From positions 93 to 64,092 of the forward strand of contig DASVMK010000098.1 of assembly GCA_036384395.1 (NCBI GenBank): DNA of 64,000 nucleotides, given 5' to 3'. The DNA is from Novosphingobium sp. (lineage in GTDB: Bacteria > Pseudomonadota > Alphaproteobacteria > Sphingomonadales > Sphingomonadaceae). Every line of letters starts with the position of its first letter. Position 1 is the first letter of the stretch. Position numbers and translations under genes: made by a program. Shown here piece by piece: positions 2,084 to 22,033 of this stretch. The notes under the pieces are model-generated. The model was not told where the DNA came from. It made no database searches and worked only from the letters and a program-made list of their open reading frames with translations.

Positions 2084-2101
2084 ATGTAATCGAACCGTAA
2101 C
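2084..2101 (+). promoter_or_regulatory. Degenerate Pho-box-like site upstream of ppk (ATGTAAT-cgaa-CCGTAAC)
   Basis: Two heptamers at 11-bp spacing; the cgaa spacer also occurs in the arrays at 19902-19982; ppk is a common Pho-regulon gene. Confidence 0.5.
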
Positions 2102-2161
2102 ATCGATGCCGCATGCGCGCAGGCAGCGTGCACGAATCCTAGGCACCGGCAAGGAAGGGTG

Positions 2162-4336
2162 ATGAGCGAGGGACGCGGCGAGGCCGTCATGCCGCAAGCG
2201 GAACTGGGCGGATCGCGGTATTTCAACCGGGAGCTGAGCTGGCTGGCGTTCAACCAGCGCGTCCTCGCCGAAGCCTCCAACCCCGACTATCCGCTGCTTG
2301 AGCGGCTGCGCTTCCTGTCGATCTCGGGCAGCAACCTCGACGAGTTCACGATGGTGCGCGTCGCCGGGCTGGCCGGGCAGGTGCGCCAGCAGGTCGAGGA
2401 GACCTCGATCGACGGCCTCACCCCGTCGCAGCAGCTTGCCGCGATCCGCGATGCGGTGACCGAGCTCGAGGCCGGGCAGCAGGAAAGCTGGCGCGTGCTG
2501 CGCGGCCAATTGGCCGAACAGGGCATCGCGTTGGCCGGCGACGTGCGGCTGGATGCCGATCAGCGCGCCTGGCTCAAGGACTATTTCCTCGAGCACATCG
2601 TCCCGATCATCACCCCGCAGGCGATCGATCCGGCGCATCCGTTCCCGTTCGTCGCCAACCAGGGCATGGGCATCCTGTTCTCGCTGATCCGCACCGCCGA
2701 CGGATCGCCGGTGATGGAGATGATCCTCATCCCCTCGGCGCTGCCGCGCTTCATCCGCATGCCCGGCGGCAAAGAGAGTCAGAGCGCGAGCGGTCAGGCG
2801 CTCTACATCGCCATCGAGGACTTGCTGTGCCGTCACGCCGGGCTGATGTTCCCCGGCTTCAAGGTCCAGGGCCACGGCGTGTTCCGCGTGCTGCGCGACA
2901 GCGACCTAGAGGTCGAGGAGGACGCCGAGGACCTCGTCCGCTATTTCCGCACCGCGATCCAGCGCCGCCGCCGGGGCCGGGTGATCTCGCTGCAACTGCA
3001 GGGCGATTTCGATCCGGCGGCCGAGAAGCTGCTACGCGACCAGCTGCGCCTCGACAACGCGATGGTGCTCAAGACCGACGGCCTGATCGGCATCAGCGGC
3101 CTCGCCGGCATCGTCGAGGAGGACCGCCCCGACCTCAAGTTCGAGCCCTATAGCCCGCGCTATCCCGAACGCATCATGGAACACGACGGCGATTGCTTCG
3201 CCGCGATCCGCGAGAAGGACATCGTCATCCACCACCCCTACGAGAGCTTCGAGGTGGTGATCGACTTCCTGCGCCAGGCGGCCGAGGATCCCGACGTCGT
3301 CGCGATCAAGCAGACGCTCTACCGCGCCGGCAAGCAATCGGGCATCATCAACGCGCTGATCGCGGCGGCCGAGAACGGCAAGTCGGTGACCGCGGTGGTC
3401 GAGCTCAAGGCGCGCTTCGACGAGGAGCAGAACCTCCACTGGGCCAGCCAGCTCGAACGCGCGGGCGTGCAGGTGATCTACGGCTTCGTCGATTGGAAGA
3501 CCCACGCCAAGGTCTCGATGGTGGTGCGGCGCGAGGGCGAGGGCTATCGCACCTATTGCCACTTCGGCACCGGCAACTACCACCCGGTGACCGCGCGCAT
3601 CTACACCGACCTCAGCTTCTTCACCGCCGATCCCAAGGCCGGGCGCGACGCGGGCATGCTGTTCAACTTCATCACCGGCTATGTCGAGCCCGACAAGACC
3701 GAGCTCCTGTCGCTCTCGCCGCTGGGCCTGCGCCGCAAGCTCTACGAATGCATCGACGGCGAGATCGCCAACGCCACGGCGGGCAAGCCGGCGGTGATCT
3801 GGGCCAAGCTCAACGCGCTGACCGATCCCGAGCTGATCGACCGGCTCTATGCCGCGAGCGCGGCCGGGGTGGAGATCCTGCTGGTGGTGCGCGGCATCTG
3901 CTGCCTGCGGCCGGGCGTGCCGGGGCTGTCCGACAACATCGTCGTCAAGTCGATCATCGGCCGCTTCCTCGAGCACAGCCGCATCTGGGCCTTCGCCAAC
4001 GGCGCGCCGCTGCCCAACGCCAAGGCGCTGCTGTTCATCTCCTCGGCCGACGGCATGAGCCGCAACCTCGACCGCCGGGTGGAGCTGCTGGTGCCGATCC
4101 GCAACCGCACGGTTCACGACCAGGTGCTCGATCAGGTAATGCTGGCGAATCTGCTCGATACCGAGCAGAGCTGGCTGATCGGCCCGGACGGTAGCCATGC
4201 CCGGATGGACAAGGGTGAGAAGCCATTCAATCTGCATCTCTACTTCATGACCAATCCCTCGCTGTCTGGCCGCGGCGCGGCGCTGACCAGCGGCCGCAAG
4301 GTGCCCAAGCTCGCGCTGCGTCGCGGCGCTGGTTGA
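2162..4336 (+). CDS. ppk: Polyphosphate kinase 1
   Basis: YFNRELSWLAFNQRVL, HHPYESF, IKQTLYR, ELKARFDEEQN, KTHAK, GRFLEHSRI, SADGMSRNLDRRVE. Confidence 0.97.
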   Translation: MSEGRGEAVMPQAELGGSRYFNRELSWLAFNQRVLAEASNPDYPLLERLRFLSISGSNLDEFTMVRVAGLAGQVRQQVEETSIDGLTPSQQLAAIRDAVTELEAGQQESWRVLRGQLAEQGIALAGDVRLDADQRAWLKDYFLEHIVPIITPQAIDPAHPFPFVANQGMGILFSLIRTADGSPVMEMILIPSALPRFIRMPGGKESQSASGQALYIAIEDLLCRHAGLMFPGFKVQGHGVFRVLRDSDLEVEEDAEDLVRYFRTAIQRRRRGRVISLQLQGDFDPAAEKLLRDQLRLDNAMVLKTDGLIGISGLAGIVEEDRPDLKFEPYSPRYPERIMEHDGDCFAAIREKDIVIHHPYESFEVVIDFLRQAAEDPDVVAIKQTLYRAGKQSGIINALIAAAENGKSVTAVVELKARFDEEQNLHWASQLERAGVQVIYGFVDWKTHAKVSMVVRREGEGYRTYCHFGTGNYHPVTARIYTDLSFFTADPKAGRDAGMLFNFITGYVEPDKTELLSLSPLGLRRKLYECIDGEIANATAGKPAVIWAKLNALTDPELIDRLYAASAAGVEILLVVRGICCLRPGVPGLSDNIVVKSIIGRFLEHSRIWAFANGAPLPNAKALLFISSADGMSRNLDRRVELLVPIRNRTVHDQVLDQVMLANLLDTEQSWLIGPDGSHARMDKGEKPFNLHLYFMTNPSLSGRGAALTSGRKVPKLALRRGAG

Positions 4337-4358
4337 GGGTACGCGCGGGGCGGCGCGC

Positions 4359-5792
4359 ATGACCGCCGAGCGCGCGATCATCGACATCGGTTCGAACACC
4401 GTGCGCCTGGTGGTGTACGGCGGGCCGGCGCGCGCGCCGACGGTGCTGCTGAACGAGAAGGTCACCGCCAAGCTCGGCAAGGGCCTCGCCGAGAACGGCC
4501 GGCTGTCGGACAAGGCGATGAAAGTCGCGCTGGCCGCGCTCGGGCGCTATGCCCTGCTGCTGCGACTGCGCGGGGTGGAGAGGGTCGAGACCGTCGCCAC
4601 CGCCGCCGCGCGCGATGCGACCAATGGCGAGGATTTCCTGGCGCGCGTCCGCGCGCTGGGGCTGGCGCCGCGGCTGCTGTCGGGCGAGCAGGAGGCGGTC
4701 ACCAGCGCGATGGGCGTGATCGGCGCGCTGCCGGGCGCCAAGGGCGTCGTTGCCGATCTCGGCGGCGGCAGCCTGGAGCTGATCCATGTCGAGGGCGGGC
4801 GAAGCTGGCACGGCGCCAGCCTGCCGTTCGGCACGCTGCGCCTGCCGGGCTTGCGCGCGCAAGGGCCTGTCCGTTTCTCGCGCGGCATCGTCAAGGCGCT
4901 CGACGCGGCCGAATGGCACTGCGCGCCGGGCGAGGCGTTGTACCTCGTCGGCGGCTCGCACCGCGCGCTGGCGCGGGTGGCGATGCACGCGGCGGGCTGG
5001 CCGATCGACGATCCGCATGCCTTCGAACTGTCGCCGCAGGCGGCGCTCAAGACCTGCCGGCTGGTGCTGGCGGACGCGCTGCCGCCGGCGATTCCCGGCC
5101 TCTCGGCCTCACGCCGGGCGAGCCTGCCCGCCGCCGCCGCGCTGCTGGCGGTCCTGGTGCGCGAGCTCAAGCCGGCGCGGCTGGTGTTCTCCGCTTGGGG
5201 TCTGCGCGAGGGGCTGATGTACGCGGCGCTGCCGGCGGCGGAGCAGGCGCTCGATCCGCTGCTGGCGGGCGCCTTCGCCTTCGGCCAGGCGCTCGGCTGC
5301 GCGCCCGCCGACGCCGCGGCGATCGCCGGCTGGACCGCGCCGGTGGCGGCCGGGGACGAAACCTTGCGCCTCGCCGCGACGCTGCTGGCGCTGGTCTCGC
5401 AGCGGATCGAGCCCAACTTGCGCGCCGGGCACATCATGGACGGGGCGCTGCGCAAGCGCTGGATCGGCATCGACGCCCCCGGCCGCGCGCAGATTGCCGC
5501 CTGCGCGCTCGCCAACGCCGGGCGCGCGGCGCCGGCCGAGGCGCTGGGGCGCCTTGCCCCGGCCGACCGGTTGCGCGAGGCGGCCGGATGGGGCCTCGCC
5601 ATGCGCCTGTGCCGGCGCTTCAGCGGCCTTTCCGCCAAGGTGCTGGCGGGAAGCGCGCTGAGCGTGGAGGACGGCGCGCTCACGCTGACGATGCAGGAGG
5701 CCTACGCGCCGCTTTACACCGAGATGGTCGAGAAGGACCTCAAGGCGCTGGCCGAGCACCTGGGCCTGCGCGCGGCGGTGCGGAAGGCGTAG
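4359..5792 (+). CDS. ppx: Ppx/GppA family exopolyphosphatase
   Basis: IIDIGSNTVRL, SGEQEA, DLGGGSLEL, SAWGLREG; directly downstream of ppk. Confidence 0.92.
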   Translation: MTAERAIIDIGSNTVRLVVYGGPARAPTVLLNEKVTAKLGKGLAENGRLSDKAMKVALAALGRYALLLRLRGVERVETVATAAARDATNGEDFLARVRALGLAPRLLSGEQEAVTSAMGVIGALPGAKGVVADLGGGSLELIHVEGGRSWHGASLPFGTLRLPGLRAQGPVRFSRGIVKALDAAEWHCAPGEALYLVGGSHRALARVAMHAAGWPIDDPHAFELSPQAALKTCRLVLADALPPAIPGLSASRRASLPAAAALLAVLVRELKPARLVFSAWGLREGLMYAALPAAEQALDPLLAGAFAFGQALGCAPADAAAIAGWTAPVAAGDETLRLAATLLALVSQRIEPNLRAGHIMDGALRKRWIGIDAPGRAQIAACALANAGRAAPAEALGRLAPADRLREAAGWGLAMRLCRRFSGLSAKVLAGSALSVEDGALTLTMQEAYAPLYTEMVEKDLKALAEHLGLRAAVRKA

Positions 5793-5800
5793 AGAAGGGG

Positions 5801-5928: not shown

Positions 5929-5938
5929 AAACTCTTGT

Positions 5939-6934
5939 TCAGCCCACCAGCTCCCGCGCCACGGCGATCTCGGCGATGGTCCGCTGGCCCTCGTGGCGCT
6001 TGAGCTGCACGATCACGTCGATCAGCGAGGCGGCGTAGTCGATCGTTTCGTGGCGGGTGAGGCCGATCTGCGCCTGCATCGCCATCAGGCCGATCTGCTC
6101 CAATGCGCCGCGCGGGGAATTGGCGTGGACGGTGGAGAACGAGCCGGGATGGCCGGTGTTGATCGCGCGCAGGAACGAGACCGTCTCGCGTCCGCGCAAT
6201 TCGCCCAGCACGATGCGGTCGGGGCGCAGGCGCAGCGCCGCCTGGACGAGATCGTCGGGCGTCACTCGCGCTTCGCCGAGCTCCCCCTTGACCGCGACGA
6301 GGCCCAGCGCATTCGCCGTCGGCAGCTTGAGCTCGGGCGTGTCCTCGACCAGGATCACGCGCTCGCCGGGCGGAATCGCGCCGAGCATGGCGTTGAGGAA
6401 CGTGGTCTTGCCGGTCGAGGTGCCGCCGGCCACCAGGATCGTCTTCCGCCGCGCGATCGCCGCGCGCAAGTAGTCGAGCGGGCGGGCCAGCGGATCGGGC
6501 ATCGCCGCTTCGGCCTGGGGCCGGATCGGGCCGTTGTTCCAGGCATCGAGCGGCAGGTCGATCAGGCGGTGGCGGCGGATCGCCAGCGCCCAGTTGCGCC
6601 GCGTCGCCGGCGGGCCGACGAGCTGGATGCGCGCGCCGTCAGGTAGTGTCGCGGCCAGCAGCGGATGCTCGCGGTTGATGCCCTGGTGGCTCTGGCGCGC
6701 GACTTGCTCGGCCAGTCGTTGCAGCAGGGTATCGTCGATCTCGGGCAGCGCGACGCGCTGCATGGCGGGCGTGCCGGCCTCCTCGATCCACAGCTCGCCG
6801 GGGCGGTTGACGAGGATCTCGGTGACGCTTTCGCGCGCCAGGAACGGGCGGAACGGCGCCAGGTAGGCGTCGAGATAGACGCTGCGCGGCGCGGTGTCCG
6901 CCGCCGCCGGGAGCGCGCGCAGCTCGGCGCTCAC
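5939..6934 (-). CDS. virB11: P-type T4SS ATPase VirB11
   Basis: EILVNRPGE, Walker A GGTSTGKTT, VEDTPEL, LRLRPDRIVLGELRG, NTGHPGSFSTVHANS; GTG start overlaps the virB10 stop (GTGA). The longer tracked ORF is an upstream extension. Confidence 0.95.
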   Translation of the reverse strand: MSAELRALPAAADTAPRSVYLDAYLAPFRPFLARESVTEILVNRPGELWIEEAGTPAMQRVALPEIDDTLLQRLAEQVARQSHQGINREHPLLAATLPDGARIQLVGPPATRRNWALAIRRHRLIDLPLDAWNNGPIRPQAEAAMPDPLARPLDYLRAAIARRKTILVAGGTSTGKTTFLNAMLGAIPPGERVILVEDTPELKLPTANALGLVAVKGELGEARVTPDDLVQAALRLRPDRIVLGELRGRETVSFLRAINTGHPGSFSTVHANSPRGALEQIGLMAMQAQIGLTRHETIDYAASLIDVIVQLKRHEGQRTIAEIAVARELVG

Positions 6935-8034
6935 TCGCGTTCGACCTTCGAGAAGTCGAGATCGCGCGCGGTGAAGACGCGGATCGGCTCGCCCTGGCGG
7001 ACGCGGATCGTCGGGCCGATCTGTCCGCCCTGGCCGACCGCCGCCGCGGCCGCCGACTGGCCGCCGCCGCCGACGATCACATTGGCGCCGTTGCCGATCA
7101 GCGAGGGGATGCCGCCGATCACCGAGAGCAGCATCGACGAGCCGAAGCGCTCGAAGAAATGGCTGTCGACCTTGCCGGCGAGGCCGGTCTCGCCGGAGAA
7201 GGCGACGGCGGGGGAGGCGATGGCGACCGAGACGCCGTCGGGGCGGATCAGCCGCGTCCAGATCACGTAGGCGCGCTTCTGGCCCGAGGTCATGCCGCTC
7301 TTGTACTGGCCGATGAGCCGCGACGAGCGGGGGACGAGCACGCGGGTGCCGTCGAACGAGCGCACGTCGGCCGAGACGATGGCGCGGACGTAGCCGGGCA
7401 CGTCGGTGTCGATCGCGGTTTCCAGCACCGCCGGGATCAGCGTGCCCTGCGTCACCGTGGTGCGCGGATCGATCGCGCTGGCCGCACTGGCCGCGCCGCC
7501 GCCCACCCCGCCGAGCCGCGCGGCGAAATCGTCGTTGCCGTTGCCGGAGCCGCCCGGTGCCGCCGCCGGTCCGCCCAGCGCGATGGCGGGGGCGGACGCG
7601 GGAAGCGCGCTGGCGTCGAACACGATGGTCGGGCTGCTGTGTGGGTTGGCCCGCACGCCTGGCGCCATTTGCGGCGGCGCGGCGAGGACCGCCTGCTGTT
7701 GCGGCGCTGCGGGCGCGGTTCCGGGCGCGGGGGTGATCGCCTGTGGCGGCACCGCGGGCGGCAGCGCGACGGGCGGGGCGCCCACTTGCGTCGGCAAGGG
7801 CCCGCGCTTCTGCACGGTGCGGGCGTTGTCCATGCTCCACAGCGTCACCGCGCCGAGCAGGCCGACCACCGCGACCCCGGCGGCCAGGCCGAAGGCGTCG
7901 GAGCGCGGCTTGCGCGCCGCGACTTGCGGCAGGACGTTGCGCGTGGCGAGATCGATGATCTCCGCGCCTTGCGCATCGCGCGGATCGGCGTCGTTGGCGG
8001 CGAAGCGTTCGGACAGCTTGGTCGTGGGGCGCAT
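6931..8034 (-). CDS. virB10: TrbI/VirB10 T4SS core-complex protein
   Basis: N-terminal TM helix, Pro/Ala linker, QGTLIPAVLETAIDTDVPG, VPRSSRLIGQY, G..G.VDSHFFERFG, PTIRVRQGEPIRVFTARDLDF. Confidence 0.95.
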   Translation of the reverse strand: MRPTTKLSERFAANDADPRDAQGAEIIDLATRNVLPQVAARKPRSDAFGLAAGVAVVGLLGAVTLWSMDNARTVQKRGPLPTQVGAPPVALPPAVPPQAITPAPGTAPAAPQQQAVLAAPPQMAPGVRANPHSSPTIVFDASALPASAPAIALGGPAAAPGGSGNGNDDFAARLGGVGGGAASAASAIDPRTTVTQGTLIPAVLETAIDTDVPGYVRAIVSADVRSFDGTRVLVPRSSRLIGQYKSGMTSGQKRAYVIWTRLIRPDGVSVAIASPAVAFSGETGLAGKVDSHFFERFGSSMLLSVIGGIPSLIGNGANVIVGGGGQSAAAAAVGQGGQIGPTIRVRQGEPIRVFTARDLDFSKVERE

Positions 8035-8038
8035 GGGA

Positions 8039-8842
8039 TCAGTGGCCTTGGGCGGGGAGGATGAGCGGCGGGGCGGCGGTGTCGGTGGCGGCGGCCAGGC
8101 CCGGCGAAGCGGCCGGCGCGACCGGTTTGGGCGCCGCGCCGCGGTTCTCCAGCATGGCCATCGCCTTGCCCAGCCGCAGCACGATCAGCGCGGGCACGCC
8201 GTCCACCACGATCACGTCGTCGCGCACCGCGTAGTTCACCGGGCCTTCGACGCCCGCTTCGTTCTGCACCAGGATCGCCGGTACCGGCTGGCCGGCGGGC
8301 CACGACAGGAAGGTGGATTCGCCGTCGTCATAGACGCGCTGCGGCAGCAGCGTCGGCTTGCCCTTGGGGGCCCAGGCGAAGTTGAGCTGCGCGGGATCGA
8401 CCGGCGGCTTGGCCAGCGCCTGCGCCTCGGCGCTGCTCAACGTGGGCTGCGGGGCCGGCTTGGGCTCGGCCGGATAGGTGAAGCGCAGCACGTAGATCGG
8501 CCGCGCGGCGGGCGAGGCGGCGAGGTCGAACACATAGCTGCGCTTGTCGGTCACCACCGTCATGTTGGTGCGCGCGCTGGCGGTGAGCGGTTTCACGAAC
8601 AGCATGTTGGCGCGCTTGTTGGGCGTCACCTGCCACAAGTTCGAATCGCCGATGGCGACGTTCTCGATGTGCTCCTCGTCGGCGAAGGCGATCGCCGCCT
8701 GGACGCCGGTGCGCCCTTCGAGGCGGACGACCTGGTTGGGGTCGTAGTGCCGGGTGGCGAGGCGCGGGTCGGCGGTCTGGGCATGCGCCGGCACCGCGAT
8801 CGTGACGAGGGGGGCTAGCGCGAGAAGCAGCGGGCGGATCAT
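8039..8842 (-). CDS. virB9: TrbG/VirB9 T4SS outer-membrane core protein
   Basis: Signal peptide, DPRL..Y.P.QV, NMLFVKP, TNMTVVTDKRSYVFDL, VYDDGESTF; ATG overlaps the virB6 stop. Confidence 0.93.
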   Translation of the reverse strand: MIRPLLLALAPLVTIAVPAHAQTADPRLATRHYDPNQVVRLEGRTGVQAAIAFADEEHIENVAIGDSNLWQVTPNKRANMLFVKPLTASARTNMTVVTDKRSYVFDLAASPAARPIYVLRFTYPAEPKPAPQPTLSSAEAQALAKPPVDPAQLNFAWAPKGKPTLLPQRVYDDGESTFLSWPAGQPVPAILVQNEAGVEGPVNYAVRDDVIVVDGVPALIVLRLGKAMAMLENRGAAPKPVAPAASPGLAAATDTAAPPLILPAQGH

Positions 8843-10038
8843 CGGGACATCTCTTTCAGCGAAGCGGGCGCGCGCGCGGCGAAGCGGCTGCCGATCCCGC
8901 GCGCGCGGGCGCGGGGCAGCGGCGGCAGGCCGGGCTGCGGCGCGAGCGCGGCGGCCTGGGTAACGGTGGTGCGGATCGTGCTGGTCTGCGCCGAGCCGCC
9001 GGTGGGGGCCTGCGCCTCGGCGGCGGCGGCGATCACCGGCGCCAGCGCCGCGCCGCGCGCCAGCATCGGCGTCGGCTGCGCGGCCAGCGGCGCGAGGACC
9101 GGGATGGCGGCGGCACCGTTCGCCGACGAACCGCCCCTGCCGCTCTCGGAGGGCGCGGCGAGGCCGAACACCGTCCAGGCCGACACCATCGTGCCCGCGA
9201 CCTTCATCACCATGCTCATCAGCGCCGCGTGGACCGCCGCGATCACGAACAGCGCCATCGCCGCGCGCGGGTCGATCCCCTCGGTGCCGCGCAAGTCGGC
9301 GATCACCGGCACCGCGAGCTCGAGCGTCAGCGAACCGCCGGCGACGACGAACAGCGGCGCGATCGCGGTCATGACGAGGCCGCGCAGCCAGCCCGCCGCC
9401 AGCCCGCGCGTGCCCGAGAACAGCGCCAGCACGACGAAGACCGGCCCCAGCGCGAGCAGCACGGCCAGTGCGATCCGCGCGGTCACCAGCACGCCGACGG
9501 TGCCGAGCAGCAGCAGCAGCGCGCCGAGCCACATCAGCCCGGTGGGCGAGAACGCGCCTCCGGCTTGAGCGGCATTGGCGGCCTGCGCCGCGCCCGCCGC
9601 CGGAGCGGCGCCGTTGCTGGCGGTCTGGGCGATCGCCGCGAAGATCATGTCGAGCCGGCCGGCGAAGATCTGCGTCGCCGAGCCCTTGATGCCGGTGAGG
9701 ATCCCGGCGAGCTGGTCGGGCGCGCCGATGGCGAGGTTCCAGACCACGCCCTGCCAGGCGACCCAGCTCGTCGCGAAGGTCAGCACGAGGCCGAGCGTCA
9801 GCGCGCGCGGGGTCAGCGCCGCCACGCCGAGCCGGCTGCGCCCGGTGAGCAGCGCCAGCGCGAAGACCGCGATGTAGAGCGTCAGCAGGATCGTCAGCGC
9901 CGGCAGGAGCGCGCCTTGCGCGCCGAACAGCCGGCCGAACGCCGCGCCCGCCAGCTCGTTCGACAGGCAATCGACCGCGCGCAGCGCCGGGGCGGCGCCC
10001 AGCGAGGCTTCGGCGGTGAGCTGGGTGCAGGCGGCCAT
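8839..10038 (-). CDS. virB6: TrbL/VirB6 polytopic inner-membrane T4SS protein
   Basis: Several TM segments, RIALAVLLALGPVFVVLALFSGTRGLAAGWL signature, Ala/Pro-rich C-tail; sits between virB4 and virB9. Confidence 0.88.
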   Translation of the reverse strand: MAACTQLTAEASLGAAPALRAVDCLSNELAGAAFGRLFGAQGALLPALTILLTLYIAVFALALLTGRSRLGVAALTPRALTLGLVLTFATSWVAWQGVVWNLAIGAPDQLAGILTGIKGSATQIFAGRLDMIFAAIAQTASNGAAPAAGAAQAANAAQAGGAFSPTGLMWLGALLLLLGTVGVLVTARIALAVLLALGPVFVVLALFSGTRGLAAGWLRGLVMTAIAPLFVVAGGSLTLELAVPVIADLRGTEGIDPRAAMALFVIAAVHAALMSMVMKVAGTMVSAWTVFGLAAPSESGRGGSSANGAAAIPVLAPLAAQPTPMLARGAALAPVIAAAAEAQAPTGGSAQTSTIRTTVTQAAALAPQPGLPPLPRARARGIGSRFAARAPASLKEMSR

Positions 10039-10039
10039 G

Positions 10040-12469: not shown

Positions 12470-12479
12470 CGTTCGCTCC

Positions 12480-13750: not shown

Positions 13751-13768
13751 GTGACGGCTCTGTGACAG
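13751..13768 (-). promoter_or_regulatory. Pho box upstream of virB1: CTGTCAC-AGAG-CCGTCAC
   Basis: Reverse complement of GTGACGGCTCTGTGACAG; two near-consensus PhoB heptamers at 11-bp spacing ending 35 bp before the virB1 ATG. Confidence 0.8.
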
Positions 13769-13903: not shown

Positions 13904-14299
13904 TCATCGCGCGGCGAGCATCTGGCCCTGCGAGAGGCGGGACAGCGCGGAGCGGGCGGCCTGGCGCGAATCCATCCAACGGCCGTCGGCAAGTTCGAGC
14001 TCGTAGCGGCTGCGGCTCGCCATCGCAGCGCGGTAGTACCCTTCGGCCTTGGCCATGTCGCCCATGCGGGCGGAGGCGGTGCCGAGGTTGATAAGGGCGG
14101 CCGGATCGTCGATGTCGAGTGCGCGATTGGCGCGGATGCGATGAATCGCTGCCGCGTTGTGGCCGGCGCTGAGTTCGTCGTAGCCGACTTCGGCGTAGGC
14201 GATCTCGCTGCCCGTGCGTCCCTCGTACCCCGGGACGACGATCAGCGGCGCGGATTGAGCCAGCAGCGCGGCAACCAGCATAGTAGCGGACATCGGCAT
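13904..14299 (-). CDS. Small secreted tetratricopeptide-repeat protein
   Basis: AGGAG RBS, hydrophobic N-terminus, TPR-like segment PAALINLGTASARMGDMAKAEGYYRAAM. Confidence 0.75.
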   Translation of the reverse strand: MPMSATMLVAALLAQSAPLIVVPGYEGRTGSEIAYAEVGYDELSAGHNAAAIHRIRANRALDIDDPAALINLGTASARMGDMAKAEGYYRAAMASRSRYELELADGRWMDSRQAARSALSRLSQGQMLAAR

Positions 14300-14371: not shown

Positions 14372-14499
14372 TTGTCATAAAAATGAAACGTTGGCCTTCC
14401 GGCGGAGTCGGGTCCGTCAGCCAAGGTGTTGTCATAATTGTCATATTACAACCACAGAACACTATTCGAACTGTCATAGAACCGAAAACAAACTGTCAC
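14372..14499 (+). promoter_or_regulatory. Phased array of Pho-box half-sites upstream of the lipoprotein/TBDR operon
   Basis: TTGTCAT 14372, TTGTCAT 14438, CTGTCAT 14471, CTGTCAC 14493: offsets 66, 33 and 22 bp, all multiples of 11; an extra TTGTCAT at 14429. Confidence 0.75.
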
Positions 14500-14571: not shown

Positions 14572-16167
14572 GTGAAAAAACCGCACAGCTTGATTATGGT
14601 CGCCTGCAGCGCGCTGGCGCTCGCCGGCTGCGGCGCCGACGACGTCGCGGCACCCGGCGGCCCGATCGTGATCCCGACGCCGTCGCCGTCGCCCTCTCCG
14701 ACCCCCACGCCCGGCGCGGGCTCGGTCACCGCGGCTGCTTCGTGCACCCCGGGCACTACCGACCTCGGCACCATTCAGCTCCAGGGCACCCGCGGCACCA
14801 TCCGCAACTGCGGTGTTCCGGCGCAGATCACCGGCACGCTTAACCTTACCGCGCGCCGCGCGGACGGCGTGATGTACTCGCTCAACGGCCGCACCGACGT
14901 GGGCCGTGACATCGATCTGGCCGGCGGGGCTGCGGCGACGCTCAACGTCTCGGCCGGCGTGACCGTCTTCGCGCAGACCCGCGAGACCTCGCTGATCGTC
15001 AACCGCGGTTCGCGCCTCAACGCCGACGGCAACGCCAACCAGCCGATCATCTTCACCGCGCTCGCCAACCTCACCGGCCAGGGCATGACCGAGGCCACCG
15101 ACAACCTCTGGGGCGGCCTGATCGTCAACGGCCGCGCGCCGGTCTCGGACTGTGACGCCACCGTCTCGTCCTCCACCGTGGGCGGCTCGGCCGGCTGCTG
15201 GCGCAAGGCCGAAGGCGTCGCCACCGACACGCTGTTCGGCGGCAACGTCGCCAACGACAATTCGGGCATCCTGCGCTACGTCCAGGTGAACTTCACCGGC
15301 GTCGGCGCGAACGCCAGCGAGATCCAGGGCATCACCACCGGCGGCGTCGGCTCGGGCACCGTGATGTCGCACATCCAGATCCACAACAGCCTGGACGACG
15401 GCATCGAATCGTTCGGCGGCACGCAGAACATGGATCACCTGGTGATGACCGGCATCGCCGACGACTCGCTGGACACCGACAACGGCTTCCGCGGCGCGGT
15501 GCAGTTCCTCCTGGCCGTGCGCCGGGCCAACGGCACGGTCGGCGATTCGGCCGGCAACCAGACGATGCTCGAGGTCGACAGCTCGGCGGTGAACGACGCG
15601 CAGCCGCGCCAGTACCTGCGCCTCGCCAACTTCACCTTCGTCCAGAACACGCCGAACGAGCCGGCCATCCGCCTGCGCGGCGGCGCCGACGTCGACCTGA
15701 TCAACGGCATCGTCATCGCCAAGAACACCGGCACCCGCCAGTGCTTCGACGTCGACGACGCGCAGACCGTTCAGGCGGCCGGCACCGGCGGCGCTGCGAA
15801 CGACGAGCGTGGCCCGCCGCGCCTGCTTTCGGTGGTGTTCGACTGCGGCACGCTGATTGATGCCGACGCCGACACCTTCGAGCAGGATACGCTGAGCAAC
15901 CCCGCCAACAGCGCGGTCAACCAGGCCTTCACCAACACGCTGGCGTTCCTGACGGGCTCCACCGTGGGCCAGGTCGCGCCCGGCACGAACGAGCTTGCCG
16001 TCGCCGGCGCGGCCAACCTGACCACGATCAGCTCGTTCTTCACCCAGGTCAACTACATCGGTGCCTTCAGCGGCCCCGGCGATACCTGGACCCAGGGTTG
16101 GACCTGCAACTCCGACGTCGCCAACTTGCGCGGCCTGACGAGCTGCACCGACATCCGCGTCTCGTAA
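14572..16167 (+). CDS. Uncharacterised lipoprotein with parallel beta-helix-like repeats, TBDR-associated
   Basis: GTG start, lipobox LAGC (Cys20), Pro/Thr linker, WGGLIVNGRAP, DNSGILRYV, GGVGSGT, DDGIESFGG, DDSLDTDNG; strongly C-ending codon bias. Confidence 0.8.
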   Translation: MKKPHSLIMVACSALALAGCGADDVAAPGGPIVIPTPSPSPSPTPTPGAGSVTAAASCTPGTTDLGTIQLQGTRGTIRNCGVPAQITGTLNLTARRADGVMYSLNGRTDVGRDIDLAGGAAATLNVSAGVTVFAQTRETSLIVNRGSRLNADGNANQPIIFTALANLTGQGMTEATDNLWGGLIVNGRAPVSDCDATVSSSTVGGSAGCWRKAEGVATDTLFGGNVANDNSGILRYVQVNFTGVGANASEIQGITTGGVGSGTVMSHIQIHNSLDDGIESFGGTQNMDHLVMTGIADDSLDTDNGFRGAVQFLLAVRRANGTVGDSAGNQTMLEVDSSAVNDAQPRQYLRLANFTFVQNTPNEPAIRLRGGADVDLINGIVIAKNTGTRQCFDVDDAQTVQAAGTGGAANDERGPPRLLSVVFDCGTLIDADADTFEQDTLSNPANSAVNQAFTNTLAFLTGSTVGQVAPGTNELAVAGAANLTTISSFFTQVNYIGAFSGPGDTWTQGWTCNSDVANLRGLTSCTDIRVS

Positions 16168-16185: not shown

Positions 16186-16212
16186 GGGGGAGCGGCCGTG
16201 CGCCCCTCCCCC
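16186..16212 (+). other. GGGGGAG...CTCCCCC stem-loop between the lipoprotein and TBDR genes
   Basis: 7-bp stem beginning 19 nt after the stop codon; the same stem recurs at 18967-18987. Confidence 0.5.
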
Positions 16213-16239
16213 CCTCTTCGTTCTCCTGGGGGACCACCA

Positions 16240-18948
16240 ATGACCCGTTCGCGCCTTTTCCTCGCTCTGTTGCTGGCTGGCACCGGGCTGACCAGCCACG
16301 CCGCGATGGCGCAAACCGAGCCGCAGCCGACGCCGCCCAGCGGTGCCGAAACGGCCACACCCGCACCGGCGGACCCGGCGCCCGCCGAGGAAGACGTGGA
16401 GGTGTCCGCTCCCGGCGCGGAGGGCGCCGAGATCGTCGTCACCGGCCGCTTCATTCCCGAGCCCGTCCGCAACACCGCGCAAGTGGTGAACGTGCTGTCG
16501 TCCGCCGAAATCGCGCGCACCGGCGACGGCGACATTTCGGGCGCGCTGCAGCGCGTGACCGGCCTGTCGGTCAACACCAATGGCTTCGTCTACGTTCGCG
16601 GTCTCGGTGATCGCTATTCGCTGGCGCTGCTCAACGGCCTGGCGCTCCCTTCGCCCGAACCGCTGCGGCGTGTGGTGCCGCTCGACGTGTTTCCGACCAG
16701 CATCGTCTCCAGCGCGCTCGTTCAGAAAAGCTATTCGGTCAACTACCCTGGCGAGTACGGCGGCGGCGTCATCAACCTCACCACCGCCTCGCTGCCCGAG
16801 GAGAACTACCTGACGCTCGGCACCGGCATCAGCATCGACACCGAGACCACCGCCCAGCTCGGCTACACCTATTACGGCAGCAAGCGCGACATCGTCGGCT
16901 ACGACGACGGCACCCGTCGCTTGCCCACCGCGCTGCGCAACAACAACGGCCAACTTGTCAGCGCCAACGTGCTGGAGAACGAGGATACGCTGATCGTCCA
17001 GCGCAACCATGACATCCCGGCCAACTTCAGCGCCTCGGCAAGCGCCGGCTACGCCACCGATTTCGGCGAGAGCCGCTTCGGCGTGCTCGCCAGCATGGGC
17101 TACTCGAACGGCTGGCGCACCCGCGGCGCCACGCAGCAGACCGCGCTGGCGGGCTCGCTGGTCAACAGCAGCTATGGCGTGCGGACCGAGAACCGCATCC
17201 AGGCCAACGCGCTGGTCAGCCTCGGCCTCGACCTGCCGCAGGGCCACAAACTGCGCTTCACCAACGTCTACATCCACGACACTTCGAAGGTCGCGCGCGT
17301 GCGCGGATCCTACGAGAACATTCAGACCCGCTTCGAGGACCTGGACGCCGGCCGCCTGACGGGCCCTTACGATTCGCTCAATTACGAGACGAACTACGTC
17401 CAGCGCCAGCTCATCACCTCGCAGCTCGTCGGCGAGTTCAAGTTCGGCGACTTCGACCTCGACTTGCGCGGCAGCTATTCGAACTCGCAACGCAAGTCGC
17501 CCTACGAGCGGACGACGCAGTACCGCTACGTCCCCGCGACCGAAGGCTATGCGATCCGCTTCGGCGCGCCGACGGGCGTTGTGTTCAGCGACCTGAACGA
17601 GGACGTGTGGGCCGGTGGCGCCGACCTCGCCTATGAATTCACGGGGCCGTTCACCGCCAAGCTCTCGGCGGGTTACGCCTACAGCGACACGAGCCGCCGT
17701 TTCGAAAGCCTGAACTTCGTCTACGACGACGGTGGCGCGCCGGTGGTGACCACGCCCAACGCCTACCTGCCGATCTACCAGCTTCTTTCGCCGGACTTCG
17801 TCGATTACGAAAACATCACGCTGCGCCAGGCCAACCGCGCGTTCGGCCAGGCGCTCTATCGCGGCGACCTGACCGTGCACGGCGGCTATGTGCGCGCCGA
17901 CATGGGCCTGGCCGAAGGGCTCAGGCTCGAGGCGGGCGTACGCTACGAGACCGCCAAGCAGACGCTGACGCTGCCCGACATCTACGGCAACAATCCGAAC
18001 GGCGCCGGCACGGCCGCAGTGATCGAGAAGAAGAACGACTACTGGTTGCCCGCCGCGACGATGACCTGGAACTTCGCCGAAGACTGGCAATTGCGCGTCC
18101 ACGGCTCCAAGACGATCGCCCGGCCGCAGTTCCGCGAGCTCGGCACGATCCCGGTGCTCGATCTGGAATCCGATCGCCTGCTGAGCGGCAACCCGTTCCT
18201 GACCGACAGCCAGCTCTACAACGCCGAGGTCCGCACCGAGTTCTATCCGGCGCGCGGAGAGCGGATCTCGCTGGCCGGCTTCTACAAGCGGATCGACAAG
18301 CCGATCGAATCGATCGCCACCGTCGACGCCTCGGGCCAGCTCCAGGTCAGCAACGCCAACGCGCCCAAGGCTGACCTTTACGGCGTCGAGGCGGAAGTGG
18401 TGAAGTACTTCGACCTCGCCGGCCTTGGCGGCGACTATTTCGCCACCCGCCGTCTGATGCTCTCGGCCAACTACACCTATAGCCAGTCGAAGCTGAAGGT
18501 GGCGGCCGGCGACACCACCGTGCTGTTCCCCGGCAATATCGACAGCCCGCTGATCGCCCCCGCAGGCCAGGTGTTCACAAACGGCAGCCCGCTGACCGGA
18601 CAGTCAAAGCACCTCGCCAACATCCAGTTCGGCATCGAGGATACCGAGACCTTGTCGCAGATCACCCTGCTGCTGACTTACGCCAGCAAGCGCGTGAGCT
18701 CGCGCGGGGCCAACAGCGGCGGCGTGGTCGATCCCGACATCGTCGAGAGGCCCGGCGTCAACCTCGACATCGTCGCGCGGCAGGCCATCGAGGTGGCCGG
18801 CATGCCGCCGCTCGAATTCAAAGTGGAGGGCCGCAACCTCCTCGGAACCGATTTCAGCGAGACGCAGCGCTATCCGGCCTACACGGTGCAGAACAACACT
18901 TACGACGTTGGCACCACCATCGCGGCCAGCATCTCGGCCAAGTTCTAA
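16240..18948 (+). CDS. TonB-dependent outer-membrane receptor
   Basis: Signal peptide, TonB box EIVVTG, plug motifs ALQRVTGLSV and VYVRGLGDRY...LNG, RVVPLDVFP, C-terminal ...SISAKF. Confidence 0.95.
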   Translation: MTRSRLFLALLLAGTGLTSHAAMAQTEPQPTPPSGAETATPAPADPAPAEEDVEVSAPGAEGAEIVVTGRFIPEPVRNTAQVVNVLSSAEIARTGDGDISGALQRVTGLSVNTNGFVYVRGLGDRYSLALLNGLALPSPEPLRRVVPLDVFPTSIVSSALVQKSYSVNYPGEYGGGVINLTTASLPEENYLTLGTGISIDTETTAQLGYTYYGSKRDIVGYDDGTRRLPTALRNNNGQLVSANVLENEDTLIVQRNHDIPANFSASASAGYATDFGESRFGVLASMGYSNGWRTRGATQQTALAGSLVNSSYGVRTENRIQANALVSLGLDLPQGHKLRFTNVYIHDTSKVARVRGSYENIQTRFEDLDAGRLTGPYDSLNYETNYVQRQLITSQLVGEFKFGDFDLDLRGSYSNSQRKSPYERTTQYRYVPATEGYAIRFGAPTGVVFSDLNEDVWAGGADLAYEFTGPFTAKLSAGYAYSDTSRRFESLNFVYDDGGAPVVTTPNAYLPIYQLLSPDFVDYENITLRQANRAFGQALYRGDLTVHGGYVRADMGLAEGLRLEAGVRYETAKQTLTLPDIYGNNPNGAGTAAVIEKKNDYWLPAATMTWNFAEDWQLRVHGSKTIARPQFRELGTIPVLDLESDRLLSGNPFLTDSQLYNAEVRTEFYPARGERISLAGFYKRIDKPIESIATVDASGQLQVSNANAPKADLYGVEAEVVKYFDLAGLGGDYFATRRLMLSANYTYSQSKLKVAAGDTTVLFPGNIDSPLIAPAGQVFTNGSPLTGQSKHLANIQFGIEDTETLSQITLLLTYASKRVSSRGANSGGVVDPDIVERPGVNLDIVARQAIEVAGMPPLEFKVEGRNLLGTDFSETQRYPAYTVQNNTYDVGTTIAASISAKF

Positions 18949-19183: not shown

Positions 19184-19858
19184 TCAAGGCTGGTCGAGCA
19201 CGTATCCCAGCGAACGCACCGTGCGCAGCGGATCGCCGGCGCCGGCGGTGCGCAGCGCGCGGCGCAGGCGGCCGATCCAGACATCGACCGTGCGTTCGTC
19301 GACCGGCGGGTCCTGCTTGCCGAGCGCGGCGATGAGCTGGCCGCGGGTGAACACCCGGCCGGGATGCTCGACCAGGTAGCGCAGCAGGCGGAACTCGTTG
19401 GGCATCAGCGGGATCGCCTTGCCGCGCCAGCGCGCCTGGAAGGCGGCGAGATCGATGCTGAGCTCGCCGAGCGCGAGGTTGCGCGCGGGCGCGCCGTCGT
19501 GGTCGTGCGGCCGGGCCGAGAGCACCCGGTCGAGCAGCGCGGTGCGGGTGGCGGGTCCGACCATGTAGTCGTCCGCCCCGGCGCGCAGCGCACGGCGGCG
19601 GGCGTCCTGGTCGTCCTCCTCCAGCATCATCGTGATGTGCGCCTGCGCGGTCAGCGGATCGCAGCGCAGCCGGCGGCAGATCTCGAGCCCTGAGATCTCG
19701 GGCAGCACCCAGTCGACGAAGGCCCAGAGCGTGCCTTCGAGCAGCGGCAGCTCGCTGGGCCGCGCCCAGCGATGGAACAGCACTTCGAGCTCGCCGTGGA
19801 CGAACGGCGCGGTTCCCCCCTCGAGCTCGCCGGTCAGCAGTATGTCGACGCGGTGCAT
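19184..19858 (-). CDS. PhoB-like OmpR-family regulator with atypical (pseudo-)receiver domain
   Basis: FVDWVLPEISGLEICRRLR and GADDY resemble PhoB; DNA-binding domain ERTVDVWIGRLRRAL...LRTVRSLGY; GGAG RBS before ATG 19858. Confidence 0.85.
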   Translation of the reverse strand: MHRVDILLTGELEGGTAPFVHGELEVLFHRWARPSELPLLEGTLWAFVDWVLPEISGLEICRRLRCDPLTAQAHITMMLEEDDQDARRRALRAGADDYMVGPATRTALLDRVLSARPHDHDGAPARNLALGELSIDLAAFQARWRGKAIPLMPNEFRLLRYLVEHPGRVFTRGQLIAALGKQDPPVDERTVDVWIGRLRRALRTAGAGDPLRTVRSLGYVLDQP

Positions 19859-19901: not shown

Positions 19902-19941
19902 GTGACGCGCAAATGACGGTTCGGCGACAGTTCGGTGAAAT
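19902..19941 (-). promoter_or_regulatory. Four-unit Pho-box array upstream of the phoB-like gene
   Basis: Minus strand ATTTCAC-CGAA-CTGTCGC-CGAA-CCGTCAT-TTGC-GCGTCAC with exact 11-bp period. Confidence 0.8.
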
Positions 19942-19953: not shown

Positions 19954-19982
19954 CTGTCACCGAACTGACCCCGATCCGTCAC
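19954..19982 (+). promoter_or_regulatory. Three-unit Pho-box array upstream of plcP-agt
   Basis: CTGTCAC-CGAA-CTGACCC-CGAT-CCGTCAC with exact 11-bp period. Confidence 0.8.
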
Positions 19983-20033: not shown

Positions 20034-20933
20034 ATGATGATCTTCGATGACGCGGACCTGCTGCCCCGCAAGCCGGGTGGCGTTCCTCCCCTGGGCAAGA
20101 TCCCCGAATGGCTCGACCTGCCAGACCCCAAGGGCTTCCGTCCCAAGCGCAAGTACCGCACGGTGTGGATTTCCGACGTCCACCTCGGCACGCGCGGCTG
20201 CAACGCGGCGCTGCTCGTGGATTTCCTGCGCTCGATCGAGTGCCAGACGCTCTACCTGGTCGGCGACATCGTCGACGGCTGGCGGCTGCGCAAAGGCTGG
20301 TACTGGCCCGACGCCCACAACGAGGTGGTCCGCCGCCTGCTCAAGATGGCGCATCGCGGCACCCGCGTGGTCTTCGTCGCGGGCAATCACGACGAGATGC
20401 TGCGCGACTATGCCGGGCTGACCTTCGGCGGGGTCGAGCTGGTGCTCGAAGCGGTGCACGAGACCGCCGACGGTCGCCGCCTGCTGGTGACTCACGGCGA
20501 CAGCTTCGACGGCGTGGTGCTCTACGCCAAGTGGCTCGCGTTCCTGGGCGACAAGGCCTACGGGCTGCTGCTGCGCGCCAACATCCTGTTCAACGCCGTG
20601 CGACGGCGGCTGAAGATGCCGTACTGGTCGCTCTCCGCGCACCTCAAGCGCAAGGTCAAGAACGCCGTCCAGTACGTCTGCAGCTTCGAGGAGGCGGTGG
20701 CGCGCGAGGCGCTCGAGCGCGGCTTCGACGGCATCGTCTGCGGCCACATCCACTGCGCCGAGATTCGCGCGATCGGCGACATCACCTATTACAACGACGG
20801 CGACTGGGTCGAAAGCTGCACCGCGCTGGCCGAAGAGGCCGATGGCGCGATGCACATCGTCGACTGGGCGCAGGAAGTGGCGGCCGAGGCGGCGGCGAAC
20901 GCGCCCACCCAGCCGCTGGAGACGGTGGCATGA
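20034..20933 (+). CDS. plcP: PlcP-type phospholipase C (LpxH-like metallophosphoesterase)
   Basis: SDVHLG, GDIVD, GNHD (His, not the Arg of LpxH GNRD), THGD, CGHIH, YYNDGDWVESCT; coupled to a GT4 gene; Pho box upstream. An alternative GTG start lies at 20028. Confidence 0.85.
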   Translation: MMIFDDADLLPRKPGGVPPLGKIPEWLDLPDPKGFRPKRKYRTVWISDVHLGTRGCNAALLVDFLRSIECQTLYLVGDIVDGWRLRKGWYWPDAHNEVVRRLLKMAHRGTRVVFVAGNHDEMLRDYAGLTFGGVELVLEAVHETADGRRLLVTHGDSFDGVVLYAKWLAFLGDKAYGLLLRANILFNAVRRRLKMPYWSLSAHLKRKVKNAVQYVCSFEEAVAREALERGFDGIVCGHIHCAEIRAIGDITYYNDGDWVESCTALAEEADGAMHIVDWAQEVAAEAAANAPTQPLETVA

Positions 20934-22033
20934 GCGCGCCTATTCGCATCGCTATCGCCACCGACGCCTGGTTTCCGCAGGTCAACGGCGTCGTCCGCAC
21001 GCTGGCGGCCACCGTCGCGGTGCTCGACCGGCAGGGCTACGAGGTCGAACTGATCACGCCCGAGCGCTTCCTCACCGTGCCGATGCCCGGCTATTCGGCG
21101 ATCCGCCTGGCGCTGGCCCCGCGCTTCGCCGCGCGGCGGATGCTCGACCACTATCGCCCCGACATCGTCCACATCGCCACCGAAGGGCCGATCGGCTGGA
21201 GCGCGCGCGGTTGGTGCCTGGCGCGCGGGGTGCCGTTCACCACCGCGTTCCACACACGCTTTCCCGACTATGCGGCGGTCCGCACCGGCATCAGTGCCGA
21301 GCGCTTCTGGCCGATCATGCGCCGCTTCCATGCCCCCAGCCGCGCGGTGCTCGTCGCTACGCGCAGTCTGGAGCTGGAACTGCGCGGGCGCGGCTTCGAG
21401 CGAATCCGGCCCTGGAGCCGGGGCATCGACAACTGGGTCTTCCGTGCCGACGGCGACGCCCATCCCGATCTCGTCCATCTGCCGCGCCCGTTGCTGCTCA
21501 ACGTCGGCCGCGTCGCGCCCGAGAAGAACCTCGAGGCGTTCTTGCAGGCCGAGACGCCCGGCACCAAGGTCGTCGTCGGCGAAGGCCCTGCGCTTGGCGA
21601 CCTGCGCGCGCGCTATCCCGATGTGATGTTCATGGGCGCGCTGGCGGGCGAGGAGCTCGCCGCCGCCTATCGCAGCGCCGACTGTTTCGTGTTCCCCAGC
21701 CTTACCGACACCTTCGGGCTGGTGGTGATCGAGGCACTGTCGTGCGGCGTGCCGGTGGCCGCCTATCCGGTGCCCGGTCCGATCGACATCCTGGGTCCCG
21801 ATGGCTGCGGCGTCGATGGCGAGCAGGCCCGGGCGGCGGGCGCGGTCGATGAAGACCTTGCCGCCGCGATCGCCCGCGCGCTGAGGCTGCGCCGCGCCGA
21901 CGCCATCGCGCTGGCGCGCAACTACACCTGGGAACGCGCGACCGACCACTTCCTCGCGGCGATCCGCTCGGCGCTGGATGGAGCGGCGGAGCCGGTGGCG
22001 GCGCGCTCGGAGGCCGAGCTGGAGGCGGCCTGA
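20930..22033 (+). CDS. GT4 glycosyltransferase, Agt-like glycolipid (glucosyl/glucuronosyl-DAG) synthase
   Basis: RIAIATDAWFPQVNGVVRTL, VHIATEGPIG, VGRVAPEKN, FVFPSLTDTFGLVVIEALSCGVPV; ATGA overlap with plcP. Confidence 0.85.
   Translation: MSAPIRIAIATDAWFPQVNGVVRTLAATVAVLDRQGYEVELITPERFLTVPMPGYSAIRLALAPRFAARRMLDHYRPDIVHIATEGPIGWSARGWCLARGVPFTTAFHTRFPDYAAVRTGISAERFWPIMRRFHAPSRAVLVATRSLELELRGRGFERIRPWSRGIDNWVFRADGDAHPDLVHLPRPLLLNVGRVAPEKNLEAFLQAETPGTKVVVGEGPALGDLRARYPDVMFMGALAGEELAAAYRSADCFVFPSLTDTFGLVVIEALSCGVPVAAYPVPGPIDILGPDGCGVDGEQARAAGAVDEDLAAAIARALRLRRADAIALARNYTWERATDHFLAAIRSALDGAAEPVAARSEAELEAA

Follow-up and report, generated by a model that had tools for sequence, protein, structure and literature searches.

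A putative Pho-regulon cluster joining polyphosphate metabolism, a VirB-type secretion operon and a lipoprotein-receptor pair in Novosphingobium sp.

Positions 2084-22033 of a 64,000-nucleotide stretch from a Novosphingobium sp. assembly (GCA_036384395.1, contig DASVMK010000098.1, here contig C98; the whole stretch is referred to as the window) probably represent a cluster of Pho-regulon transcription units that would be activated by PhoB under low phosphate. In gene order, an aldehyde dehydrogenase gene (-) is followed by ppk1 and ppx (+), a type IV secretion system (T4SS) operon in the order virB11-10-9-6-4-3-2-1 (-), a gene for a 125-aa tetratricopeptide repeat (TPR) protein (-), genes for a 531-aa lipoprotein and a TonB-dependent receptor (TBDR) (+), an OmpR-family regulator gene (-), plcP-like and GT4 glycosyltransferase genes (+), and an MFS/HlyD/OMF efflux operon (Table 1). 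Pho-like direct repeats precede ppk, virB1, the lipoprotein-TBDR operon, the regulator gene and plcP-agt, and the density of these repeats, their conservation in relatives and the synteny of most of the genes behind them together point to a shared response to phosphate.

The source genome comprises 2.85 Mb in 273 contigs at 70% GC and 92% completeness, and among named genera it stands closest to Tsuneonella, Altererythrobacter and Alteraurantiacibacter, which all belong to the Erythrobacteraceae. Raw open reading frame lists were unusable at such high GC, and genes were instead called with a purpose-built codon-bias model trained on this genome; the gene calls carry the caveat of that in-house caller. 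Gene names were taken from Pfam and NCBIfam, and this naming bore out the gene assignments of the initial annotation. Where counts over 151 genomes are given, the family is that of GTDB, which is broader than Erythrobacteraceae. Contigs, relative genomes and relative loci are cited by C, G and L numbers where they need to be told apart.

The classical Pho box was taken to apply to this organism because boxes precede its own pstS and phoR: the pho locus phoR-pstSCAB-phoU-phoB lies on another contig (C192), with a perfect box, CTGTCATAACACTGTCAT, before pstS and a further box, CTGTCACAAAACTGTTAA, before phoR. A genome-wide mismatch scan also placed the motif before two OprO/P phosphate porin genes and a NUDIX-DUF47 (PhoU-like) gene, and these five sites, all outside the window, were used to train a position weight matrix (PWM) with which the upstream regions of 2787 called genes were ranked. 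Direct reading of the sequence located all five of the Pho-like sites proposed in the initial annotation, and the 11-bp periodicity proposed with them was found at all five loci, each with at least two 7-bp direct repeats near CTGTCAT, but does not extend to the pair at 14430/14439 (+), where TGTCAT occurs twice 9 bp apart. Before the lipoprotein gene, the box at 14372 (+) reads TTGTCAT-aaaa-ATGAAAC and that at 14471-14499 (+) reads CTGTCAT-agaa-CCGAAAA-caaa-CTGTCAC, the latter ending 73 nt from the lipoprotein GTG at 14572, and an AGGAGG lies between the virB1 box and the virB1 ATG. By PWM score the upstream regions of the cluster ranked between 7th (virB1) and 43rd (ppk) in the genome (Table 1).

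Table 1. Coordinates of genes and Pho-like sites in the cluster (positions in the window; ranks are PWM ranks among the 2787 upstream regions)
Feature	Position	Strand	Remarks
Pho-like box ATGTAATCGAACCGTAAC (ATGTAAT-cgaa-CCGTAAC) before ppk	2084..2101	+	57 nt to ppk start; weak, score 9.8, rank 43
ppk1, polyphosphate kinase	2159..4336	+	all four PP_kinase Pfam domains, E down to 5e-74
ppx, exopolyphosphatase (Ppx/GppA)	4359..5792	+	PF02541, 1e-43
virB11 ATPase	5939..6934	-	TIGR02788, 296 bits, over cut-off
virB10	6931..8034	-	TrbI 1.5e-48; NF038091
virB9	8039..8842	-	CagX 1.9e-49; TIGR02781
virB6 (TrbL family)	8839..10038	-	PF04610, 3.5e-32
virB4 ATPase	10040..12469	-	PF03135, 5.8e-40; ~75% identical in relatives
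virB3	12480..12761	-	PF05101, 1.3e-27
virB2 pilin	12761..13078	-	PF04956, 3.4e-16
virB1, lytic transglycosylase	13075..13716	-	SLT, 1.9e-24
virB operon Pho box CTGTCACAGAGCCGTCAC (CTGTCAC-agag-CCGTCAC)	13751..13768	-	score 19.7, rank 7; 35 nt to virB1 ATG (13716)
small TPR protein, 125 aa, divergent from lipoprotein gene	13904..14281	-	weak TPR Pfam hits; conserved in relatives; rank 32
Pho box cluster before lipoprotein-TBDR operon	14372..14499	+	members 14372, 14430/14439, 14471-14499; rank 8
beta-helix surface lipoprotein (PF28492 Beta_helix_4), ElpS-like by context	14572..16167	+	lipobox LAGC; PF28492 in precomputed annotation
TBDR	16198..18948	+	plug + barrel; nearest TIGR01782, below cut-off (184 vs 310 bits)
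atypical PhoB paralogue (orphan OmpR-family regulator, degenerate receiver)	19184..19858	-	TIGR02154, 148.7 bits vs cut-off 296.2
three-repeat Pho box CTGTCGC-cgaa-CCGTCAT-ttgc-GCGTCAC before regulator gene	19902..19930	-	rank 20
three-repeat Pho box CTGTCAC-cgaa-CTGACCC-cgat-CCGTCAC before plcP-agt	19954..19982	+	rank 36
plcP-like metallophosphoesterase	20034..20933	+	PF00149
agt-like GT4 glycosyltransferase	20930..22033	+	GT4 domains

At a PWM score of at least 9.5, nine sites fall within 2084-22033 against 0.94 expected (Poisson P ~7e-7), or six clusters against 0.9 expected after merging, and three of the nine sites in the genome that score at least 16 lie in this region. When a 20-kb window was slid along all contigs of 20 kb or more (374 windows), none was as dense as this region, so that the equal density elsewhere by which the initial annotation would have been refuted was not found on those contigs. 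Mismatch counting against CTGTCAT-N4-CTGTCAT was replaced by the PWM; at up to three mismatches it gave a modest two sites against 0.5 expected, and at up to four it counted overlapping repeats twice.

A search with the lipoprotein fetched 12 relative loci, of which 10 kept the order virB / TPR / lipoprotein / TBDR / regulator, even at 38-40% lipoprotein identity. The virB1 promoter of all order-keeping loci carries (C/T)TGTCAC-N4-(C/T)TGTCAT, and the lipoprotein promoter carries a proximal (C/G)TG(C/A)AA-N4-CTGTCAC in 11/11 relatives examined, in addition to distal boxes. Scans of the whole relative loci (up to 22 kb each, score at least 11.5) returned matches only at the virB1, lipoprotein, regulator and ppk promoters. 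The virB1 promoter was also footprinted over a 180-bp window in 45 further VirB2-bearing genomes of the same GTDB family and order, where boxes scoring at least 11 were found in 32 genomes against none of 359 coding control windows, and boxes scoring at least 9.5 in 37 genomes against four control windows. The virB1 half-sites are nearly invariant and the 4-bp spacer takes more than a dozen forms, a combination that reads as the signature of a protein-binding direct repeat. The geometry of a box, 6 nt and TGCGCA is common to the pstS promoter and many virB1 promoters, and the distance from the box to TGCGCA/TAAGCA (virB1, pstS) or CTAKNN (lipoprotein) is constant in relatives. The weak site at 2084 is rescued by the stronger boxes of orthologous ppk promoters, those of L010, L050, L051, L052 and L054 having their own conserved box with a TGTAAC-type second half-site (score 15.5-18.6); TGTAAC-type half-sites also occur at a Pho-type promoter elsewhere in this genome (C103). 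The box before the regulator gene likewise recurs in L010, L014, L018 and L055.

These observations bear directly on the possibility that the sites are chance matches in the AT-richer intergenic DNA of a 70% GC genome, which is now very hard to credit. The ppk and plcP sites, at scores of approximately 10, do fall within the range of many unrelated upstream regions, and the 11-bp phasing within 14372-14499 is not kept in relatives. However, across dozens of genomes the half-sites stay the same while the spacers vary freely, the control windows are empty, and the chance reading is effectively refuted by the local enrichment, the scans of relative loci, which matched at the same promoters and nowhere else, and the virB1 footprinting. 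A cooperative, helically phased array across 14372-14499 was considered as a conserved feature and rejected. Half-sites at 14373, 14439, 14472 and 14494 share one 11-bp phase in this genome, but this long-range phasing is probably due to chance, since the distances between distal and proximal boxes in relatives (90, 136, 115 and 88 bp) follow no conserved multiple of 11. Scanning the virB1/lipoprotein intergenic region with the sigma-70 consensus yielded no promoter, as expected for activator-dependent promoters and alphaproteobacterial -10 elements. At 13832-13844 (-) a weak terminator-like hairpin with a T-run separates the TPR gene from the virB1 Pho box, an indication that TPR and virB are transcribed as separate units.

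VirB2 orthologues were found in 68/151 family genomes, in 55 of them at 72-91% identity, and in about 30 VirB2-bearing genomes ppk lies 7-9 kb from virB2, directly downstream of virB11 and on the same strand. In Altererythrobacter sp. KTW20L (L015:1235-1400) the virB11 stop overlaps the ppk ATG (GCATGATG), which would imply translational coupling of polyphosphate kinase to the T4SS operon, and in L011, L014 and L018 the gap between the two genes is 70-130 bp; because of this overlap or short gap, ppk is probably the last gene of the virB operon in all four. In the present genome ppk-ppx is inverted compared with most relatives and converges on virB11. Genomes lacking virB retain the order regulator-TBDR-lipoprotein-TPR-ppk-ppx together with its boxes (L050), and the lipoprotein-TBDR pair as such is also found without virB. 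The plcP-agt genes adjoin the cluster in none of the 12 relative loci; they stand beside the regulator only in this genome, and elsewhere were found once, in another genus (L052), divergent and next to ppk-ppx and the regulator. The stable unit is thus ppk / (virB) / TPR / lipoprotein-TBDR / regulator, with plcP-agt a variable neighbour.

The initial annotation had described a single island of approximately 20 kb united by shared boxes, and had extended the phosphate-stress role of its known members to the uncharacterised ones. As an island the description needs to be narrowed, since the stable unit is syntenic across many genera but plcP-agt is not part of it and ppk-ppx is inverted here. The shared boxes are real, locally enriched and conserved before virB1, lipoprotein-TBDR, ppk and the regulator gene, although the ppk and plcP sites of this genome are weak. 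The uncharacterised members very probably do belong to a phosphate-starvation programme, as indicated by the boxes and the synteny. Pho control of plcP-agt is already known biology: in Erythrobacter sp. NAP1 a Pho box before plcP-agt and low-phosphate expression have been published (PMC4796936). The window genes have the same metallophosphoesterase-GT4 order behind a Pho box as the PlcP-Agt operon known from Sinorhizobium (PlcP), Agrobacterium (Agt), Erythrobacter sp. NAP1 and SAR11, a likeness judged at the domain level, and their arrangement is the one classed as 'type 2' (PMC4796936). There is no notable difference from the known operon, only the position beside the regulator being peculiar to this genome.

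The virB operon consists of eight contiguous genes (5939-13716, -) without space for further genes, and provides core components of a type T mating-pair-formation (MPF-T) system, namely VirB2, B3, B4, B6, B9, B10 and B11, plus the VirB1 transglycosylase. No VirB8 (PF04335) match was found at E <=0.01 in the whole 92%-complete genome, and the operon has no unassigned gene space for one. VirB5 and VirB7 genes likewise do not fit in the operon; no dedicated genome-wide search was made for them, and VirB7 is too small for reliable detection. No VirD4 is linked to the system, the only type IV coupling protein of the genome being encoded on contig C262. Compared with the minimised MPF-T systems, such as Agrobacterium VirB, R388 Trw, Brucella VirB and Bordetella Ptl, the window operon has the same VirB set in canonical order with good family scores and, like Bordetella Ptl and Brucella VirB, lacks a coupling protein. 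It differs in having no VirB8, no VirB5/VirB7 gene in the operon and no effector or relaxase genes nearby, and in being vertically inherited at a fixed chromosomal site with a Pho box in front. The effect of phosphate starvation in Agrobacterium is exerted on virG, and virB is not its direct target. In the literature searched, no T4SS operon, whether of Sphingomonadales or of any other group, is described as controlled by Pho or PhoB, and none of the papers puts a T4SS into a phosphate-starvation regulon.

The same T4SS-TBDR cluster has been noticed earlier in Erythrobacter, with a virB4 tree that follows the genome tree (PMC4919336), and a bioRxiv preprint calls the Erythrobacter T4SS and OmpR/PhoB gene an integrative and conjugative element (ICE) beside the photosynthesis cluster; neither mentions Pho boxes. 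It could be that the units are independently Pho-regulated or are unrelated neighbours, with the T4SS a remnant or part of an ICE for DNA transfer and of no relevance to phosphorus, but this appears improbable. Besides the preprint, the patchiness of virB in the family and the unconserved adjacency of plcP-agt are consistent with it, and the TraG/VirD4 coupling protein and TraA relaxase on C262 could in principle use the channel. However, no integrase, relaxase or coupling protein gene was found in the window flanks or in the 12 relative loci (att sites were not searched), and oriT-type genes are also absent beside the operon, here and in the relative loci. The operon holds a fixed position between ppk and TPR-lipoprotein-TBDR across many genera, and VirB4 (~75%) and Ppk (~70%) show similar identities among relatives, as for vertical descent and in agreement with the published virB4 trees (PMC4919336). 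The fixed position, the ppk-like divergence and the absence of mobility genes argue against an active ICE, and a mobile element would not readily account for the conserved Pho box or for the apparent co-transcription with ppk that is often seen. The C262 region is itself a fragment of a separate mobile element, in which positions 1-12948 carry a resolvase, ParA, the coupling protein (541 aa), a 1178-aa TraA-type relaxase/helicase and a TetR-MFS pair; mating-pair-formation genes are absent from this contig.

By context, the lipoprotein-TBDR pair agrees with a phosphate-scavenging module described in Caulobacter, and is probably its counterpart. There, ElpS (CC0170), a surface lipoprotein of ~50 kDa made under phosphate starvation, undergoes cleavage at residue 38, and its release depends on a type II secretion system (T2SS). 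Downstream of elpS come the TBDR gene cc0171 and gspC-N, a layout also reported for Sphingopyxis, Hyphomonas and Xanthomonas (PMC2996285). In Caulobacter the T2SS is part of the PhoB regulon (PMC11208175), and the Xanthomonas xcs cluster with its ElpS homologue is a related system (PMC7777525); the P. aeruginosa Hxc T2SS is a further one. The window shows the same order of a lipobox lipoprotein (~50 kDa) with a flexible N-terminal tether, then a TBDR, beside a multi-gene secretion machine, likewise apparently under phosphate-starvation control, which here is inferred from the boxes. In contrast to the Caulobacter module, the machine beside the pair is here a VirB-type T4SS, which lies on its other side and is transcribed divergently from it; a T2SS is missing from the genome, and the block also includes an atypical PhoB paralogue and ppk-ppx. 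The AlphaFold2 model of the lipoprotein is a right-handed beta-helix (pLDDT 85) with residues 1-38 disordered and a Pro/Thr-rich tether. The fold points to no particular enzymatic function, as the structure search gave only weak generic beta-helix matches to tailspikes and lyases (E >=1.7e-3, TM <=0.3). Lipoprotein homologues of the Hyphomonas or Rhodospirillaceae type, of 901 aa (L075:10001-12706), are tandem beta-helix duplications in which each half aligns to the whole window protein; exact-sequence look-ups of the Hyphomonas-type homologues gave no match.

In many relatives, as in Caulobacter, the module is attached to a T2SS that would be under PhoB control. In L075 a divergent 125-aa TPR gene is followed by the Beta_helix_4 lipoprotein gene, the TBDR gene and gspC-J, with a three-repeat Pho box before gspC, and in L078, of the same family, the order is lipoprotein-TBDR-gspC-H with Pho-like boxes. 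In Sphingomonas suaedae the lipoprotein-TBDR pair stands alone with GTCA repeats in front. The genome under study is without a T2SS: tblastn found no GspC, F, G, H or I, and there was no PF08334 match. Among the 151 family genomes, a high-identity T4SS and GspG occurred together in five, the T4SS only in 50, the T2SS only in 67 and neither in 29, a near-exclusion with an odds ratio of 0.04 (Fisher P 1e-13, not corrected for phylogeny). Because of this complementary distribution and the position beside the pair, it can be suggested, tentatively, that the T4SS does under phosphate starvation the job done elsewhere by the ElpS-linked T2SS. Put more fully, a vertically inherited T4SS without VirB8 or a dedicated VirD4 may conceivably have replaced a PhoB-controlled T2SS as the export or release machine of phosphate starvation, under the joint control of PhoB and its phosphorylation-independent paralogue.

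Three further arrangements were observed around these genes. In Sphingomonas suaedae a lone gene for a 372-aa T2SSE/VirB11-like ATPase (L019:15177-16357) lies two genes downstream of the lipoprotein-TBDR pair, with a Pho-like box, CTGACTTAAAACCGTCAT, in front (score 16.1) and no other secretion genes nearby. Phytase and further TBDR genes are present a few kb upstream of the lipoprotein homologue in L075. In L079 (G100:C6:84000-103900), which has the regulator and no virB, ppk-ppx lies ~4-13 kb from T2SS genes (gspE/F, gspG/H), so that here too ppk has a secretion system in its vicinity.

The regulator encoded within the cluster is best matched by the PhoB family (TIGR02154), with half the cut-off score, the match starting only at profile position 51, and its closest paralogue is PhoB in every genome searched. 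Alignment with the PhoB of this genome and with E. coli PhoB showed that the phospho-acceptor Asp is kept (D53, in FVDW), that T83 is replaced by Leu and K105 by Gly, that the acidic pair is lost, and that the N-terminal third of the receiver and the alpha1-beta2 region are remodelled. In its DNA-binding helix the regulator hardly differs from PhoB, with RTVDVWI(G/K)RLR (here RTVDVWIGRLR) against RTVDVHIRRLR, and the wing Arg is kept. These receiver and helix features are conserved in 16/16 orthologues, and because the altered residues are so conserved this is a maintained atypical regulator and not a decaying gene. With its remodelled receiver and no adjoining or partner kinase gene, it departs from PhoB and was compared with atypical, phosphorylation-independent OmpR-family regulators. 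Its presence is tied to the T4SS cluster, 35 of the 151 genomes having both, 20 virB only, five the regulator only and 91 neither.

These features raise an alternative in which it is chiefly the paralogue, rather than PhoB, that reads the boxes, the module then responding to a signal other than, or additional to, external phosphate. The paralogue might then act independently of phosphorylation, being controlled by abundance or ligand, as a feed-forward amplifier, or as a competitor that damps PhoB. Its near-PhoB helix, the receiver changes shared by all orthologues, the missing kinase gene, the tie to the T4SS cluster and the box before its own gene are all in keeping with this, but the alternative is considered unlikely. 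Some of the 20 T4SS genomes without the paralogue have canonical virB1 boxes (G024, G107), the cluster boxes are indistinguishable from the pstS and phoR boxes of the same genome, and no cluster-specific half-site variant was found, the TGTAAC type being present also at the C103 promoter. Since canonical virB1 boxes occur where the paralogue is absent, it is more economical to take PhoB as the protein that reads the boxes, with the paralogue as a likely modulator.

The motif with its enrichment and conservation, the synteny and the near-exclusive occurrence of T4SS and T2SS were observed, whereas PhoB binding, induction when phosphate is low and a part for the T4SS in acquiring phosphorus are inferred in the following scheme of PhoB-activated units. 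Under phosphate limitation, phosphorylated PhoB, encoded at phoR-pstSCAB-phoU-phoB, would bind the direct-repeat boxes, which would stand in for the -35 element. Five units would thereby be switched on, namely ppk-ppx for polyphosphate turnover, the eight-gene virB1-2-3-4-6-9-10-11 secretion operon, the ElpS-like beta-helix lipoprotein and TBDR, probably with the divergent TPR gene, the orphan PhoB paralogue, which has a Pho box of its own and once induced would either reinforce the response by feed-forward or dampen it, and plcP-agt for a swap of phospholipid to glycolipid. On the more tentative reading in which the T4SS has replaced the T2SS, it would often be co-transcribed with ppk and would work in the manner of Bordetella Ptl, moving Sec-exported periplasmic cargo outward. 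Candidate cargo would be the small TPR protein, a phosphatase or protease, or the factor that frees the ElpS-like lipoprotein; import of phosphorus-rich polymers would be an alternative function.

A number of points weigh against this scheme. The ppk and plcP boxes, at approximately 10, are individually weak in this genome and resemble many probable false positives, the virB1 box lies so close to the start codon (35 nt) that the leader would be very short, and a convincing virB1 box is missing in 8/45 relatives. In Caulobacter, ppk1 is starvation-induced but PhoB-independent (PMC11208175). The near-identical recognition helix of the local paralogue means that it could be the true reader of some boxes. 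The ElpS assignment draws on context and on what PMC2996285 reports of the Sphingopyxis and Hyphomonas homologues, and the T4SS/T2SS anticorrelation ignores phylogeny and could reflect a few ancestral events.

Conjugation, the delivery of effectors, the killing of bacteria and the uptake or release of DNA are the known roles of T4SSs. In Erythrobacter genomes this T4SS has previously been used only as a phylogenetic marker or called an ICE. Its conserved Pho box, frequent fusion with ppk and near-exclusion with the ElpS-linked T2SS now place it in a concrete physiological setting that can be tested, and offer a first clue to the purpose of this T4SS, in a marine-type alphaproteobacterium. The cluster would also be a natural example of an apparent swap between secretion-system types within one regulon, and contains a conserved PhoB-like regulator that lacks the residues for normal phosphotransfer. 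In marine and freshwater oligotrophs, the beta-helix lipoprotein and its TBDR may be parts of phosphorus scavenging that have so far gone unrecognised.

Two minor observations lie outside the cluster. An 18-kb contig (L008) in a metagenome-assembled genome labelled Cypionkella sp. carries an Erythrobacteraceae-type virB / lipoprotein / TBDR cluster at 72-88% protein identity, and was probably mis-binned into this Rhodobacteraceae genome. The window also encodes a second OmpR/PhoB-family response regulator (29476-30150, -), which is canonical, with 212 bits on the PhoB model and a full-length receiver; it adjoins a probable histidine kinase gene and has no relation to the Pho boxes.

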